This document shows positions 1,249 to 16,369 of a stretch of DNA of 37,609 nucleotides, piece after piece. This DNA comes from a virus (taxonomy: Duplodnaviria; Caudoviricetes): the IMG/VR virus record IMGVR_UViG_3300048850_000019, positions 1-37,609 of that record. One strand, 5' to 3'. The stretch's first letter is position 1. Each line of letters opens with the position of its first letter. The position numbers and the translations under genes were made by a program. The notes beneath the pieces are model-generated. The model worked only from the letters and a program-made list of their open reading frames with translations. It searched no databases and was not told the origin of the DNA.

Positions 1249-2297
1249 CGTGGATCACCTTCGCGCTTCGGACGGATAGCTTCGGCGGCTTCCCGCATCT
1301 GCTCTTCCCCCACCGCCACGCTCGACGCTTCCCGCTGTTCGGCGGGGGCGTATACCAGCGGGCGTGCCGTCACCAACTCTTTGTCAGCATCAGCCACGGC
1401 ATCGGTGTATTGCAGCCAGCGATTAGGCCAAAGCTTGGTCGGATGCGAATTGGCGATGATCTCGTAAGCTACCACACTTTCCCCCACCGCCGCGCTTGGC
1501 GCTTCCCGCTGTTCGGCGCGGGCGCGGAGCAACGACGCCGCTTTGCGCATGATGGGCGCAAGATAGGCGAGCGGGACCATGCCAGAGCTTGCTGCAACAA
1601 AGGGCGCAGCACTGTCGAGACGTTGGGCAATATCCAGCGCATCCTCCCCCACCTCTACGTCTTGGGAAGGCACCGCTGCGGTTGGCGCTTGCTTGATTTC
1701 ACCCGCTCGCTCAGCATCTTCGTCTAGGCAAGTGTTGCACAGTCCGCTCGCGGTTCGTGGAACCGCGCTACAACGTACACAGCCTCCATCGTCGGGAGCG
1801 GTTGGCGCTTGCTTGGAGCGGAGGGCAGACGCGATTGTTTCGGCTACCTTGCCGCAATCAGCGCCGCTGGAACTGCATCGCGGGCAGTAAACGTCGCTGT
1901 CATCGCCAAAACTGTCGGTGCCGCATAGTTCCGACGAACCAACCCACCCGCAATGATCGCATGAGGCGAGGTAGTAAGGTTCGCGCACCTCGAATGACAC
2001 AATAGGCCCGGCATACGTCGCCATCTGCTTGAGGTCTTCAAGCCGGACTTCCTCGGGGGTCATCCCCCCGTCATCCTCCCCCACCGGGGCGGGCTGGGCG
2101 GCGAGGTGTGGCGACCGTGTAAGCTGATTAGCCCAAAACCAGTAATGGTCCTCGCGATCCATGACCTCGTTGCGATATCGAACACGCGCCTCCCAAGGTC
2201 GGGTCTCTGTCACGACACCTTCTGTCTTGCCGTCGATGTATACCGTTTCGCCTATGCTGAATGGCGCGAACTGAGGCTTGTTGCTGCTCTCGCTCAT
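1245..2297 (-). CDS. Mosaic multi-module early protein with Cys-rich Zn-binding modules
   Basis: Start reassigned to ATG 2297 (ATGA overlap with upstream stop); CDHC..CPRC and CVRC..CNTC motifs; repeated linkers. Confidence 0.75.
   Translation of the reverse strand: MSESSNKPQFAPFSIGETVYIDGKTEGVVTETRPWEARVRYRNEVMDREDHYWFWANQLTRSPHLAAQPAPVGEDDGGMTPEEVRLEDLKQMATYAGPIVSFEVREPYYLASCDHCGWVGSSELCGTDSFGDDSDVYCPRCSSSGADCGKVAETIASALRSKQAPTAPDDGGCVRCSAVPRTASGLCNTCLDEDAERAGEIKQAPTAAVPSQDVEVGEDALDIAQRLDSAAPFVAASSGMVPLAYLAPIMRKAASLLRARAEQREAPSAAVGESVVAYEIIANSHPTKLWPNRWLQYTDAVADADKELVTARPLVYAPAEQREASSVAVGEEQMREAAEAIRPKREGDPR
1305..1518. repeat. 40-bp direct repeat pair (1305-1344, 1479-1518; 37/40 identical)
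   Basis: ttcccccaccgcc(a/g)cgct(c/t)g(a/g)cgcttcccgctgttcggcg, encoding AEQREAxSxAVGE. Confidence 0.9.
1678..1815. repeat. 18-bp perfect direct repeat pair (1678-1695, 1798-1815)
   Basis: gcggttggcgcttgcttg (KQAPTA) flanking the CVRC..CNTC module. Confidence 0.9.
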
Positions 2298-3791: not shown

Positions 3792-4595
3792 TCACCCCGC
3801 GTTCAATGGATGGTTGCGAAGCTCGGACTGCACCGAAGGTGGGAGATCACCGGGGAACACGTCGGCTTCCTGCAGGATCTTCCGTCGCGCCTCGAACTTC
3901 TTGGCGGCTTCCGTGATGTAATCCTTCGACCATCCGTCGCGCTGGGCTATGTGCTTCCATCCACCGGCACACTTGTTCACGGCCGCGATGGTCTCGCAGT
4001 CGAGCATGTCATTTTCGATGTCGATCAATGCCCGTTTTTGCTGAGCGGCAGATGCGGGCTTGTTGGTTTCGCCCTCGGAAACACCGGTCTGCGAGCGCGG
4101 GTCGATGGGGGAGGCTGGTTTCTGCTTGTCCTGTTTATCAGCCCTGAACTCGGCACCAACCTCGTTGACGTACTTGCTGTCGTCAAACATGCCCATGTGC
4201 ACGTCGGCGCCGACGCCGATCATCTTCAAGGCGTTGGTGATCGCATCCGTAAAAGCCTTCTTGAAAGCCTCGTCGTCGCTCTTCGTGCCGCTGGAGAACT
4301 TGGCAATAACCTTGTCTCCGCCGACGCCCCACGAACGCTGTTCAGGCTTCTCGTACCAGATAGACACGGTGCAATAGACGAGCGTTTCACCGTCTGTTCC
4401 AGGGACGACTTGGAAGCTTGGTTCGTAAATGCCCCACCCTTGACCGATCGGGCCGAACTCTTCCGTCATGCGCCGGTAGGACCACATCGGCTTGATGGCG
4501 GTTCCCTTGAACCCGCCGCCGCGCGTGAAGGCTTTGGTGTGGGCTGGGTCGGTGCGGCCTAGGCGATCCCAAAGTGCTGTTTTCTCAGACATCAC
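3792..4595 (-). CDS. Rad52/Sak-like single-strand annealing protein
   Basis: GGFKGTAIKPMW..RMTEEFGPIGQGWG...DDEAFKKAFTDAITNALKMIGVGADVHMG; next to exonuclease and ninB. Confidence 0.75.
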   Translation of the reverse strand: MMSEKTALWDRLGRTDPAHTKAFTRGGGFKGTAIKPMWSYRRMTEEFGPIGQGWGIYEPSFQVVPGTDGETLVYCTVSIWYEKPEQRSWGVGGDKVIAKFSSGTKSDDEAFKKAFTDAITNALKMIGVGADVHMGMFDDSKYVNEVGAEFRADKQDKQKPASPIDPRSQTGVSEGETNKPASAAQQKRALIDIENDMLDCETIAAVNKCAGGWKHIAQRDGWSKDYITEAAKKFEARRKILQEADVFPGDLPPSVQSELRNHPLNAG

Positions 4596-5266
4596 GCGGC
4601 CTCACCAAACGCGACTTGCATGCGGCGATGGATCTGGCGGGTGCGCTCCACATCGGCGGCGCAGTAGGCGGTGATCGTCTCGAACTTTTTGGCTGCCCAC
4701 AGATCCGCGATCATTGATCCGTCGATCTCGCCCTTGCCGTCGAAGCCCATGGCGCCGCAAAGCCGGTCCATGCCGATCATGCCGCGCGCGCCGGCAAAGG
4801 CCGTCATTGTGTCGAACACCTCTCCAGCCCACGGCTTCGGATCGCGCGGGAACCATGCGGGCATCGGAACACCCAGGATGATGGCACGCTGCCAGATGAA
4901 GCGGATATCGAAGCCGATGACGTTGTGGCCGATGATGGTGGGATGCTGGTACTGCGGCACCAACGCTTCAAGCGAAGCAAGGAAGCCGCTCAGGATGGGC
5001 TTCTCGTCGCGAACGTCTTCCATCCAGATCGTCTGCGCCGGCTCGTCGTCAATCGCCCAGCCGATGCAGCAGATGTGGCCGTAGGCGCCGTCGAAGCTCG
5101 TCTTCGCCACGGCTTCCTTCACCAGCGCTGGCTTCTTGTCAGCCACCCATGCCGCGATCGTCTCGGCCTTGCTGATGTTGCCGGGAACGGTGATCGTCTC
5201 GGCGATGGCGTCGTGAACGGCCGGCGACTGAGATGGGATCGTTTCGATGTCGAGATAGATGTTCAT
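4592..5266 (-). CDS. DEDD 3'-5' exonuclease (PolB-exo-like)
   Basis: ExoI YLDIET, ExoII GHNVIGFD, ExoIII YCAADV. Confidence 0.85.
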   Translation of the reverse strand: MNIYLDIETIPSQSPAVHDAIAETITVPGNISKAETIAAWVADKKPALVKEAVAKTSFDGAYGHICCIGWAIDDEPAQTIWMEDVRDEKPILSGFLASLEALVPQYQHPTIIGHNVIGFDIRFIWQRAIILGVPMPAWFPRDPKPWAGEVFDTMTAFAGARGMIGMDRLCGAMGFDGKGEIDGSMIADLWAAKKFETITAYCAADVERTRQIHRRMQVAFGEAA

Positions 5267-5269
5267 GGC

Positions 5270-5872
5270 TCAATCCACATACTGGAGATCAAGGGAAGCC
5301 ATCGCGGCCGGCGATGAAGCTGTGTCGCGCATCAACTGCGCCATGCAGCCGGCGCAAGCGGTGAAGCCTTGCTGCGAATATTTCAGCAGGCGCCGCAGGG
5401 TTGCGACGGGATAGGTGACCTTGTGGATCGCCAGCTTGCGCCGTCCGAGATCCCACAGCGCCGTCGGCGTCGTGACCAGATCGTCACCATCAAGGCAGAA
5501 CTGCGTGATGGTGTAATCGAAGCTGTCGATCACCTCCTCGGCAGTCCCGTAGAAGCGGAACCTAATCGCCTGAACGTCGATCGGTAGGCTCGACCCTTCG
5601 ATGGTCCCCCGATAGTGCTTATGGTGCTCAGTCTCGCGGATCAGGTTCATGGTGGCTGGAAGCTTCCGCTCCCAATCCTCCAACTGCGCCTCGTCACGGA
5701 AGAAGAAATCGAAGTCGCTATCCAGAGCGTGCTTGATCAGGGTTCGCCGAACGGCACCGCCTGCAATCCAAGCGCCGTTCTGCACCTTAGAAAGAACTGC
5801 ATCCAAAGCAGTCTTGTTGCAGTCGGAGCGCTCGCAGAACTCAGCGAAGTTCAATCGGATCGTGTTCATCAT
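5270..5872 (-). CDS. Minimal class-II (CCA-adding/poly(A) polymerase-like) nucleotidyltransferase
   Basis: WIAGGAVRR..DSDFDFFF (GG..DxD), IDVQ, IDSFDYTITQ, TLRRLLKY. Confidence 0.75.
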   Translation of the reverse strand: MMNTIRLNFAEFCERSDCNKTALDAVLSKVQNGAWIAGGAVRRTLIKHALDSDFDFFFRDEAQLEDWERKLPATMNLIRETEHHKHYRGTIEGSSLPIDVQAIRFRFYGTAEEVIDSFDYTITQFCLDGDDLVTTPTALWDLGRRKLAIHKVTYPVATLRRLLKYSQQGFTACAGCMAQLMRDTASSPAAMASLDLQYVD

Positions 5873-8297: not shown

Positions 8298-8524
8298 CAG
8301 ACCAGATACTCCGACACAACCGCACCCTTCGCAGTGAGGCGAATACGCGATGCCTCATCATCAGCCTCGAAAAGCTCCGGGGCGTCATCGGCGTGCTTCT
8401 TGGCAATGCCCCAAAGAACGTTGCTCACGGTGCGCCAGCCCTCGCCTTGGTCGGGCGAGCGGTTGAGAAGAGCGATGAAGCCCTTCTGTCGGTCGGTGAG
8501 CTTGGTCTGTGCTTCCTGCGTCAT
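8297..8524 (-). CDS. First gene of leftward early operon, small winged-helix-like protein
   Basis: KLTDRQKGFIALL...IRLTAKGAVV; AAGGGA RBS. Confidence 0.65.
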   Translation of the reverse strand: MTQEAQTKLTDRQKGFIALLNRSPDQGEGWRTVSNVLWGIAKKHADDAPELFEADDEASRIRLTAKGAVVSEYLV

Positions 8525-8627
8525 CTGCTCATCCCTTAGTGCTGGCCAGAAGCGGAGGGCGCTGACTGGCGGGGCGGTGTGTGGGGCGCTGGATCAGCCG
8601 GGGCTTCTTCGCAGCGGGTATGAGCAT

Positions 8628-8656
8628 TTCGTACGCTTTGTACGATCTAAGGTCAA
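8628..8656 (-). promoter_or_regulatory. Putative PL promoter
   Basis: TTGACC (8656-8651) - 17 nt - TACGAA, overlapped by operators. Confidence 0.55.
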
Positions 8657-8699
8657 GTACGTTTTGTACGATTTTTGTTGCGGCGGTCATTTTGTACGA
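8629..8699. promoter_or_regulatory. Left operators OL1-3
   Basis: TCGTAC-GCTTT-GTACGA (8629-8645), AAGTAC-GTTTT-GTACGA (8655-8671), GCGGTC-ATTTT-GTACGA (8683-8699). Confidence 0.85.
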
Positions 8700-8712
8700 C
8701 TACAACGCGTCA

Positions 8713-8930
8713 TCGAAGCGGCGACCCGGTGCAACTCCGGTGCAGGTGCAGCCGCAGGCGCGGGAAGCGAAAGTCCTACCGTGCTGCCTGAAAGTGAGGA
8801 CGGATTGCCGAGAGGCGTTCTGCCAATGTGACCGACCGACCGACGGTTCTTGTCGCAGGCATGGTTTCCCCGGCCTCATGGTGAAAGCCATGGGGTAGGG
8901 GGAAGCTTTGCCTAGCTCCCTCCCTCACTC
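8713..8930 (+). ncRNA. Putative structured ncRNA of unknown family in the immunity region
   Basis: At least six helices, three GNRA tetraloops and a T-loop-like hairpin, all read on the + strand; candidate promoter TTGCGG-N17-TACAAC at 8678-8706. Confidence 0.65.
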
Positions 8931-8968
8931 AAGTTCTTGGACGGTGTTCTACCGTAGAAGAAGGGTCT

Positions 8969-9586
8969 CTACACGTCGATCAAAATTCGACGGACCCTGC
9001 CGAACACGTACAGGTCCCCATCGACCGGTATCGAAAGATGATCGGGGTTCGTTGAGTAAGGCTGGATGCTTTCGACCGGCTTCCGCTTGTAACGCTTGAA
9101 CGTGGCTTGGCCTTCCTCAAGCGAAAATATGTAGAACCGGCCATCCACAAGCTTATCGTCGGCGCGATTGACCAGAAGCGTAGCGCCGTCGGGAGCAATT
9201 CTGTTCATCGAGTCGCCTTCGACACCAAGTGCGATCCAATCGCCCGCTGGCATATCAGCCACTTCTATCCAACGCTCGATGTCAGCAGCGGTCACACCAG
9301 GCTGTTCCCGTAGCCCGCTTGCGCTGACCATGGAAACCATGGGCACTCTGATGACGCCAGTGAACTCCATGTCCTTCCGCTCGCCAAAGAGTATCCAGCC
9401 CGGTTCGACGCCAAATGCTTTGCCATATCTCTCGGCTGCACCCTTCGAGATTTTCCGGTTGCCGTTCTCGTGGCTGATAAGCGTGTTTTGGTTGATCTCG
9501 CGGAACGCGCGAGCTGCATCGCTCGGGCTCTCAAAGCCAGCGTTGGCGCGCGCTTCCTGAAGGCGGTGCTTGGGCTCAATCTGCAT
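8969..9586 (-). CDS. cI: CI-type repressor (Xre HTH + S24 peptidase)
   Basis: RLQEARANAGF..SDAARAF..NTLISHENG; VSASG cleavage region; VEGDSM (Ser) and ATFKRY (Lys) dyad. Confidence 0.93.
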   Translation of the reverse strand: MQIEPKHRLQEARANAGFESPSDAARAFREINQNTLISHENGNRKISKGAAERYGKAFGVEPGWILFGERKDMEFTGVIRVPMVSMVSASGLREQPGVTAADIERWIEVADMPAGDWIALGVEGDSMNRIAPDGATLLVNRADDKLVDGRFYIFSLEEGQATFKRYKRKPVESIQPYSTNPDHLSIPVDGDLYVFGRVRRILIDV

Positions 9587-15291: not shown

Positions 15292-15668
15292 AGAACAAAG
15301 CCTCATTCTGGGAAGAGAGCAATGTACAGTGCGCGATTGTCTCGCACCTGCGCCGCTTCTTGCCATCAACGTATCGCGTTATCTCGATCCCTAATGGCCG
15401 GTTCAAGGCCGAGCCGCGCACCATCGAGCGTTTGAAGCGGGAAGGGCTCACGCCCGGCGCGCCAGATCTTCTGCTGCTGCGAAATGACGGATGGTTTGCG
15501 GCGATCGAGGTGAAGGCGAGCAAAGGCCGTTTGTCCCCTGAGCAGGTCGAGTGGAGCGAGTGGCTGACCGCTGGCGCTGCAGAGATGGCCGTTGTTCGCT
15601 CAGTGGATGAGGCTCTGGAGATTGTCGCCGGCTGGGGCGTGCCCCTGAAGGGGAGGATCGCCGCGTGA
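15288..15668 (+). CDS. VRR-NUC PD-(D/E)XK nuclease (resolvase-like)
   Basis: SIPNG..LKREGLTPGAPDL..IEVKASKGRLSPEQ..VVRSVDEA. Confidence 0.9.
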   Translation: MKNKASFWEESNVQCAIVSHLRRFLPSTYRVISIPNGRFKAEPRTIERLKREGLTPGAPDLLLLRNDGWFAAIEVKASKGRLSPEQVEWSEWLTAGAAEMAVVRSVDEALEIVAGWGVPLKGRIAA

Positions 15669-16369
15669 AGCCTGACACTCTTCGTAAGCTGTCTGCACTT
15701 GGCCTATCCGTCGAACAGATCGCCGGCGTTCTCGAAATCATGGAAGCCGAGGCTGAGCAGGGCAAGGAAAAGGCCCGCGCTCGCTGGCGGAAATGGAAGG
15801 AAGGGCAGGAGCCTAACGTTAGCAAACGTTTGCAAACGACTGCCAATGTTAGCAAACAACTCGTACGCGCAGAAGGTAGTTCTTCTAAGACAGAGATAAC
15901 TGGACAGGTTGAAAAAGAAGATGCGGGCAAGCCGCGTCGGTTGTCGAAAAAAGAGCAGGACGTTGCAGAGTTCAGGGCCGAGTTCGAGCCTCACCTATCC
16001 GCCAAGCTCCTAGACGAACTGGTCAAGCAGCGCACCGCCCGCAATGCCACCTTGACGGGTTACGCCGGCCAGCTTCTCCTCAAAGCCTTTTCCCGGTGCG
16101 GGCTATCCCCGGCCGAAGGCGCTGACATGTGCGTCGAGCGCAACTGGACCACCATCAAACCAGACTGGATCGCCCAAAGCGGATCGACGCGCAGAGCGCC
16201 ATCCGAACCCGATCTTTCTCACCCCGGCGCTTTCGCCGCCCACAAGCTGAAACTCAACGGAGAGAACCATGCTCCCGACTTTGCAACAGGACGTTTGGAC
16301 CAAAGCGACCGCAGCCGAGATCGACCAGACCCTTATCTCGATGCGCTCCTTATCGGCAAGGCACACTGA
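15665..16369 (+). CDS. Replication initiator (lambda O position)
   Basis: KARARWRKWK, internal iterons, C-terminal ERNWTTIKPDW. Confidence 0.7.
   Translation: MKPDTLRKLSALGLSVEQIAGVLEIMEAEAEQGKEKARARWRKWKEGQEPNVSKRLQTTANVSKQLVRAEGSSSKTEITGQVEKEDAGKPRRLSKKEQDVAEFRAEFEPHLSAKLLDELVKQRTARNATLTGYAGQLLLKAFSRCGLSPAEGADMCVERNWTTIKPDWIAQSGSTRRAPSEPDLSHPGAFAAHKLKLNGENHAPDFATGRLDQSDRSRDRPDPYLDALLIGKAH
15813..15860. repeat. Replication origin iterons (10-bp period)
   Basis: AACGTTAGCA AACGTTTGCA AACGACTGCC AATGTTAGCA within initiator, followed by A-rich tract. Confidence 0.75.

Follow-up and report, generated by a model that had tools for sequence, protein, structure and literature searches.

A conserved RNA of a new, covarying structure family was recognized in the immunity region of a lambdoid phage genome, where it lies between the leftward operators and the repressor gene. 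The genome is a 37.6-kb virus record, which was analysed in full and is referred to here as the window; it displays the lambdoid layout of a leftward early arm, a cI-like repressor and a rightward arm, and its head and tail genes are HK97-type (47 window ORFs scanned). As judged from sequence comparison, the element is probably an RNA-primed, R-loop replication origin that is exchangeable with protein-initiated origins. The RNA likely re-pairs with its own template DNA, and the resulting R-loop would prime or open phage replication; transcription, hybrid formation, priming and repressor control are steps that we infer. An R-loop-forming RNA was among the options offered in a preliminary description of this DNA, and it is the one favoured by the evidence, because short direct repeats within the RNA change together and the slot that it occupies is exchanged with initiator-plus-repeat modules, and not on account of its G-tract alone. 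For the other two options, rexAB-like exclusion and lysis-lysogeny control, no support was found.

The element is situated between three operator-like sites (8629-8699) and the cI stop, and the coordinates of its parts and surroundings are collected in Table 1. The half-site TGTACGA of the first operator recurs upstream of cI, and a further operator half-site (8693-8699) is held in the spacer of the predicted RNA promoter; this third operator is, by eye, present in some homologues and absent in others, and repressor control of the RNA is accordingly put forward as presumptive. The promoter TTGCGG-N17-TACAAC, which had been proposed earlier, is corroborated by position, since the pattern TTG[AC]-N16-18-TA begins 36-50 nt 5' of helix P1 in 40 of the 76 homologues, the window included, against a background of 16 scattered matches over -112 to -61 in the same set. 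In relatives devoid of the RNA, a short ATG-started ORF follows closely behind a matching promoter. The O-like gene of the window, together with its three 13-nt repeats, may represent a second, conventional origin of the protein type. In the minus-strand early left arm, a nucleotidyltransferase-like gene (5270-5872) and a PolB-type 3'-5' exonuclease gene (4592-5266) adjoin each other.

Table 1. Positions of the RNA, its segments and neighbouring features in the window, and of putative initiator genes in relatives that lack the RNA
Feature	Position	Strand	Remarks
Predicted PL	8628..8656	-	-35 TTGACC (8656-8651), 17 nt, -10 TACGAA (8633-8628); putative
OL1 operator	8629..8645		17-nt imperfect palindrome covering PL -10 and spacer; from sequence, putative function
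OL2 operator	8655..8671		From sequence; putative
Predicted RNA promoter	8678..8706	+	TTGCGG, 17 nt, TACAAC; predicted +1 at A8712
Conserved non-coding RNA	8712..8940	+	~225 nt; presumed ends, from conservation limits
Domain 1	8718..8755	+	P1 (8718-22/8751-55) around P2 (8726-40) and PK1 5' strand (8743-47)
Domain 2	8758..8801	+	P3 (8758-61/8781-84), PK1 3' strand (8786-90), PK2
Segment X (GGGAAGC)	8762..8768	+	Direct copy of Z; predicted template-strand guide
Linker	8769..8772	+	Mostly GNRA
PK2 pairing	8773-77 with 8797-8801, 8779-8796, 8780-8794	+	A8778 and T8795 bulged
P5 hairpin, GAGA loop	8802..8820	+	From paired counts
Segment a (TGCC)	8821..8824	+	Copy of a2 (8909-12); also able to pair with a' (8858-61)
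Segment R2	8845..8852	+	Inside hairpin P6 (8827-8857); copied as R2' (8932-39)
Long hairpin	8857..8913	+	a' 8858-61, Y 8864-70, G-tract 8892-8902, Z 8900-06, a2 8909-12
C-rich linker W (8914-29) and R2' (8932-39)	8914..8939	+	Conservation ends here; putative RNA-DNA hybrid/primer-end role
cI-like repressor	8969..9586	-	Convergent with the RNA; phrog_4, E 3.8e-28
O-like/primosomal protein	15665..16369	+	Three 13-nt repeats at 15815-15857, inside gene
Mini O-like proteins, ~100-125 aa, HTH_36 only	L394:4990-5319, L397:1551-1871, L401:3517-3879, L402:5050-5358		
Mini O-like proteins, continued	L403:7573-7869, L405:9244-9606, L408:9450-9830		

Pattern and genome searches provided 76 distinct full-length homologues from rhizobial phages and prophages, which were aligned to a covariance model; a copy with an internal deletion (L148), two partial copies (L209 and L211), duplicates, and L271, L286 and L390-L393 were excluded, and all counts over 76 are counts of sequences rather than of independent events. 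Sequence similarity among the homologues starts near 8717 and stops near 8940. The preliminary description could not assign the RNA to a family, and Rfam likewise gave no match, whether the window was scanned at gathering scores or the interval 8500-9000 at E 10, while a literature search of titles and abstract openings found no description of the RNA, which supplements or subscription papers might list. In a pattern search of GTDB, 14 of the 21 matches were family members, and these were distributed over Shinella, Rhizobium, Pseudorhizobium, Pararhizobium, Ensifer, Mesorhizobium, Aquamicrobium and Pseudochrobactrum. Within one bacterial family, BLAST matches were obtained in 26 of 400 genomes, several of them being merely short pieces; an order-wide covariance-model search matched 3 of 151 genomes, and a class-wide pattern with two mismatches yielded noise at the control level, none of 30 loci fitting the profile. 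BLAST also matched the 5' half in Pseudochrobactrum prophages and in two phages deposited as Synechococcus phages. L002 / L305 (OM868082.1), deposited with a Synechococcus host, bears a rhizobial-type RNA and gene set, and its true host may be an alphaproteobacterium. Relatives matching ~8715-8925 are contained in four sequencing-run contig sets, three of which are probably DNA and the fourth of uncertain type; they show that relatives exist and do not bear on expression.

The genes beside the RNA vary (DUF5131, DUF3800, macro domain, RelA/SpoT, methylase, or cI directly). Defence-like cargo, comprising DUF3800, macro domain, RelA/SpoT, a methylase with NotI-like nuclease and DUF5131, was noticed between the RNA and cI in L059, L129, L148, L151, L091, L159, L085 and L095. 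A link to the DUF3800 motifs named in the available part of PMC5737381 was considered and dropped, as DUF3800 occurs in 4 of the 82 downstream ORFs, which is too few. Two damaged copies of the RNA were also encountered, one without P6 and Y (L148, 2983-3174) and one with both ends missing in an AT-rich genome (L209), and a CRISPR array in L212 (~1500-1533, minus strand) carries one spacer that matches the PK2/PK1 part of the RNA.

A structured RNA on the + strand behind an operator-flanked promoter had been proposed from the window alone, and it is borne out by covariation as well as by the position of the promoter; all sequences quoted in that proposal were recovered in their places. The region 8700-8935 alone folds at -104.3 kcal/mol (z -2.75), which was equalled by 1 of 200 shuffles. 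In the alignment, P1, P2, PK1, P3, PK2 and the outer stem of P5 are 96.7-100% paired, versus 38-45% with slid partners (n = 76), and six helices, two pseudoknots among them, show compensatory changes. P1 (GCGGC/GCCGC) is paired in 375 of 379 cells (98.9%), the T-loop hairpin P2 in 301 of 304 (99.0%) and the outer stem of the GAGA hairpin (8802-05/8817-20) in 98%, all three as first drawn, and the TGTGAC/GTCGCA helix occurs, by eye, in two exchangeable sequence types. The proposed CAGGC/GCCTG stem did not survive, its pair 8756-8789 being formed in just 24 of 76 sequences; the partner of GCCTG (8786-90) is CAGGT (8743-47), which gives rise to the pseudoknot PK1 with 99.3% of cells paired (73-76 of 76 per pair; UA 46, AU 25 and CG 4 at 8744-8789). 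The long-range helix AGTGAGG/CCTCACT was upheld in part, with its four inner pairs formed in 64-76 of 75-76 sequences and its three outer pairs in 21-38 of 74-76. Its rival is the second pseudoknot, PK2 (GTCCT-C-C 8773-80 / G-GAGGAC 8794-8801), which is paired in 524 of 532 cells and includes the best-covarying pair of the whole alignment, 8780-8794. In the long hairpin, the Y/Z part (572 of 605) and the first four pairs of the top stem (74-76 of 76) hold, while the GAAA drawn at its tip is not conserved. The ORF 8700-8891, which had been named as the coding alternative to an RNA, has no PHROG match, and the homologues of the RNA contain indels of all sizes.

Short segments in the 5' part of the RNA are direct copies of its 3' tail and vary with the tail, namely X with Z, a with a2 and R2 with R2'. 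When Y and Z were located without the use of X, X was identical to Z in 109 of 112 cells where Y tolerates either base, the three misses looking like register slips, and also in 8 of 8 cells where Z mismatches Y. This identity is stricter than Y requires, and thus pairing with Y does not account for it; the X/Y helix itself has 6-7 of its 7 pairs formed in 75 of 76 sequences. As for R2, GTTCTTG at 8846-52 is identical to 8933-39 in the window; among the homologues, in which the internal copy was placed by best match, the core exhibits 11 variants with both copies identical in 74 of 76, the spacing between R2 and R2' ranges over 84-96, and no complement of R2 occurs at a common place within 1.5 kb of the flanks. 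Where R2 and R2' differ at offsets -2 to 0, G in the internal copy stands against A in the tail in 17 instances and the opposite arrangement in 0; a G-T wobble on the template would allow such an asymmetry, although the P6 stem, which also holds the internal Gs, confounds it. The gap between Z and a2 in the tail is 2 nt and that between a' and Y is 2-3 nt (by eye). The co-changing repeats suggest pairing between the core and the complement of the RNA's tail, which would be either template DNA or antisense RNA, and it counts against the origin reading that an antisense RNA would yield the same repeat pattern. The 60 nt located 3' of the RNA are rich in purine (0.63 versus 0.50; richer than the locus in 71 of 75) and in AT (0.59 versus 0.43; 74 of 75), although AT richness after the RNA is usual for intergenic DNA.

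It is mainly in ColE1-type plasmids of Gammaproteobacteria that conserved primer RNAs are known. Like RNA II of ColE1/pMB1, as described in the available parts of two accounts (PMC4412123, PMC5043065), the phage RNA is structured and free of ORFs, lies behind a promoter, in its case a predicted one, and terminates with a long hairpin bearing a G-tract, and one of its inner segments matches the template strand close to the 3' end. Such a template-pairing segment, the mark of a ColE1-type origin, was found in the phage RNA at the level of sequence, in the co-change of X with Z and R2 with R2'. According to the first of these accounts, a run of rG in the RNA has to pair with a run of dC in the template for the persistent hybrid of ColE1 (PMC4412123); the second describes how RNase H trims the RNA, Pol I extends it and a helicase is loaded onto the displaced strand, and calls the trigger of the persistent hybrid speculative (PMC5043065). 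By eye, GGAGC-GAAC-GACCT-AC of ColE1 aligns with GGGAAGC-GAAA-GTCCT-AC of the phage RNA (X-GNRA-PK2), and counterparts of the PK2 partner and of the final hairpin can be lined up too. GACCT/GGGTC is replaced by TGCCT/AGGCA in 3 of 5 enterobacterial origins, so that both sides change as they do in PK2. In contrast, the phage RNA measures ~225 nt versus ~550 for RNA II, has three sequence-variable copied segments and is located in the immunity region of temperate alphaproteobacterial phages; ColE1 replicons come from five orders of Gammaproteobacteria, according to the available part of PMC8683028. Neither an RNA I region nor Rop was seen, with no RNAI match in the window, and an A-tract hairpin resembling the RNA I terminator precedes P1 in 2 of 76 homologues by script and in a few more by eye, the window not being one of them.

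The likeness to RNA II is not carried by the statistics as homology. A covariance-model search over the RNA II region gave a best E of 1.4, and nhmmer found no match between the phage RNA and ColE1 in either direction. In a test of the aligned block, 21 of 1000 shuffles and 20 of 1430 background windows scored as high (p ~0.02, for ColE1 only), and none of seven other ColE1-family origins rose above the 10.7 of ColE1, five of them scoring 4.0 or less; in the Aeromonas origins X differs from Z, unlike in the phage RNA. The ColE1/phage consensus pattern retrieved 4 ColE1 copies, 4 family members and 23 unrelated sequences, with no intermediate form. The phage RNA at most works like RNA II and is not counted as a member of that family. 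Other systems share single traits. MRB replicons of Vibrionaceae (pB1067) are, by the description in the available part of PMC3035462, dependent on a Rep-less, ORF-free RNA origin, which differs from the phage RNA in its plasmid location, its ~490-bp length and its 68-nt RNA I. T4 oriF and oriG combine a phage promoter and a downstream unwinding element with a persistent R-loop used by the phage helicase, and no conserved folded RNA or internal guide is described for them in the available part of PMC4412123; T4 is lytic and has its own replisome genes, unlike the phages bearing the RNA. The Polynucleobacter-1 motif (RF01718) gave no cmscan match and differs in its hosts, Burkholderiales, and the Rhizobiales-1 and -2 motifs are 60-104 nt, unlike the phage RNA, according to the available part of PMC2864571.

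The replication genes of the phages were surveyed among rightward-arm ORFs, with 59 of 72 cluster representatives and 59 of 92 singletons of at least 150 aa being covered. Temperate lambdoid phages are textbook users of protein initiators. DnaB_C was present in 24 of the 30 IMG/VR records bearing the RNA, and these 24 contained one full initiator (G953) and one primase (G972), the remaining 22 having neither among the rightward-arm ORFs scanned. A whole-record search found HTH_36 over the cut-off in none of 31 RNA-bearing records and phrog_678 in 4, all four without DnaB. O-like genes are carried by the window and five other records; from the O-like pieces in 5 of 7 DnaB-less records and the full initiator in G953, it follows that the RNA coexists with protein initiators. 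In G950 and G971 neither DnaB nor an initiator was seen. The phage of the window speaks against the R-loop origin in this respect, as it has no DnaB among its 47 ORFs scanned, yet possesses an O-like gene with three iteron-like repeats. In two annotated examples, methylase and RuvC genes precede DnaB. A phrog_26995 protein (L317:7907-8470 and relatives) was observed in 19 of the 24 DnaB-bearing arms and in no DnaB-less one; it was considered as an initiator and rejected, the protein that travels with DnaB looking GapR-like. A phage RNase H gene (L082:606-1127) was noticed in a leftward arm near the RNA, as 1 of 89 upstream ORFs scanned.

When phages were collected by the helicase alone, just 4 of 41 new records carried the RNA, and hence the helicase does not depend on it; the notion that an orphan DnaB implies this RNA was given up, since the helicase clade does not predict the RNA, and was superseded by the reading of slot exchange. 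The OL-cI interval was examined in 20 phages without the RNA, in none of which did the RNA profile find a trace. This slot was occupied by an ORF of 98-204 aa in nine phages and by another conserved non-coding element in six, five being unclassified. The slot ORF stands directly behind a rightward OL promoter in the seven cases checked (L394, L397, L402, L405, L406, L408 and L413), and the ORFs of L401 and L403 were placed in the slot because they resemble those of L405 and L397. Seven of the nine match HTH_36, six over the cut-off, and the N-terminal part of O-like initiator profiles, whereas the ORF of L406 has no profile match and that of L413 a weak HTH match. Repeats of 17-23 nt were found after eight of the nine ORFs by script and after the ninth by eye, comprising 20-23 nt repeats at 24 or 36 nt spacing after six ORFs and 17-nt near-repeats after two. 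The motif CTCTGAGGG follows the seven mini-initiators and, among the 76 homologues, follows the RNA in L152 alone, a scarcity that weighs against the origin reading. The location of mini O-like proteins inside the immunity region, like their size, is unusual for a phage initiator; a different slot ORF, in L406:2817-3431 and L413:9278-9766, has G-tract hairpins behind it as well as 21-23 nt repeats with a spacing of 36 nt. Two further points weigh against the origin reading here: the profile matches by which the slot ORFs are named are weak (best E 6e-10), and the ORFs form about five related groups that could be repressors of another type.

The second non-coding element of the slot (L395, L396, L404, L407, L409 and L410, two of them identical) is several hundred bases long and lies some 400-1700 nt ahead of the cI end; its copies are 75-89% identical over 250-530 nt, and the five records scanned gave no Rfam match. 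It opens with the same A-tract hairpin that precedes the RNA in L128 and L142, and is probably another family of origin RNA. Behind the OL promoter of L400, which is related to L399, there is yet another non-coding slot sequence, the third, containing hairpins and G-rich stretches. The slot survey is most simply read as showing an origin cassette whose protein and RNA alleles can be exchanged. On this basis, we tentatively propose that rhizobial lambda-like phages could possess an exchangeable OL origin cassette, a model that we hold to be credible, if not quite probable, and whose alleles would be an initiator-free, RNA-guided origin, a mini O-like protein with iterons, and a longer second RNA. 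In the RNA allele, three short, freely mutable guides on a pseudoknotted scaffold would seek their template-strand copies, open the DNA and pass it to the phage DnaB without an initiator protein; the guides would set the specificity of the origin and could be reprogrammed.

For the R-loop origin, the following course of events can be envisaged. Once repression is lifted, the rightward OL promoter would make the RNA from ~8712, and the 5' core would fold during transcription and display X, a and R2, while the long hairpin would hide the RNA's own Z and a2. X and a, as two arms with a fixed 2-nt gap, would pair with the template under Z-a2, and R2 with that under R2', thereby anchoring a persistent hybrid, the 3' end of which, trimmed by RNase H or left by RNA polymerase, would prime Pol I. 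The displaced purine-rich, AT-rich downstream strand would take up the phage DnaB-like helicase or the host primosome, and the fork would move rightward, as PR transcription does. CI acting at OL, perhaps together with antisense RNA from read-through of cI, would control copy number in place of an RNA I/Rop system.

Structured RNAs of phage immunity regions whose repeats flank a complementary segment are known in c4 and CI, the repeat order of c4 being b1-b'-b2, and an antisense or attenuation regulator like P1 c4 or P4 CI is a conceivable, if unlikely, identity for the phage RNA. Its exposed segments would then pair with a convergent transcript from the cI side, or X with Y in the nascent sense transcript, and the RNA would terminate read-through into OL or control the cargo genes and superinfection immunity. 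In keeping with this, the RNA is convergent with cI (all 16 S24-repressor matches among the 82 downstream ORFs scanned lie on the opposite strand), an antisense transcript would be complementary to X, a and R2 exactly as the template is, the order X-Y-Z resembles b1-b'-b2, and A-tract hairpins able to end minus-strand transcription precede P1 in 2 of 76 homologues by script. However, no match to C4 or another Rfam family was obtained at E 10, convergent cargo pairs such as DUF5131/TcmP separate cI from the RNA in many loci, and neither the initiator-plus-repeat modules in the slot nor the carriers of a helicase without initiator would be explained. Compared with P1/P7 c4 and P4 CI (RF01695), the phage RNA is more than twice as long and has two pseudoknots, and the loops complementary to repeats of the same transcript that distinguish c4/CI are found for X-Y-Z and a-a'-a2 but not for R2, which lacks a sense-strand complement.

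About as unlikely, in our estimation, is an origin component that is not a primer: the R-loop would merely open the duplex, as with T4 origin transcripts or with ColE1 in the absence of RNase H, or the phage helicase would be loaded by a folded form of the displaced DNA strand, or the RNA would be an auxiliary origin beside an O-type origin. The slot exchange serves this possibility equally, the RNA does coexist with O-like proteins in the window and five other records, and both routes are described for ColE1 and T4 in the available part of PMC4412123. Against it, the G-U pairs, GNRA loops, T-loops and pseudoknots point to RNA rather than to folded DNA, and a primase was seen in just 1 of the 24 helicase-bearing phages, which would make a ready-made primer an advantage. 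A catalytic or templating RNA, be it a ribozyme holding its substrate with two arms, a decoy or template for a host reverse transcriptase, or a tRNA-binding, T-box-like sensor in which two codon-like triplets change together, is very improbable. The compact double pseudoknot with bulged nucleotides and a T-loop would suit it, most R2 variants can be read as NNC-A, and the repeats flank a unit of 84-96 nt in the manner of template-jump repeats, which flank a unit in DRT2. Against this, no reverse transcriptase was found among the 47 window ORFs, 82 downstream and 89 upstream neighbours, and Rfam gave no ribozyme or T-box match, with 0 matches to self-cleaving ribozymes, RNase P or group I/II introns over 8500-9000 at E up to 10. 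Likenesses to RNase P, group I/II, FMN and cobalamin elements were dropped, and the codon or T-box reading of R2 was rejected because L254 has TAG in both copies; nor is there a shared downstream gene.

If the reading of an RNA-primed, R-loop origin is correct, it would explain how replication starts in many rhizobial prophages that carry a helicase and no recognisable initiator, and RNA and protein initiators would be interchangeable alleles of one locus. Meanwhile, a 225-nt RNA with 76 natural variants and guide partners predicted base by base makes the question of what triggers a ColE1-like hybrid testable, and the RNA could yield a small, repressor-controlled replicon for rhizobia.
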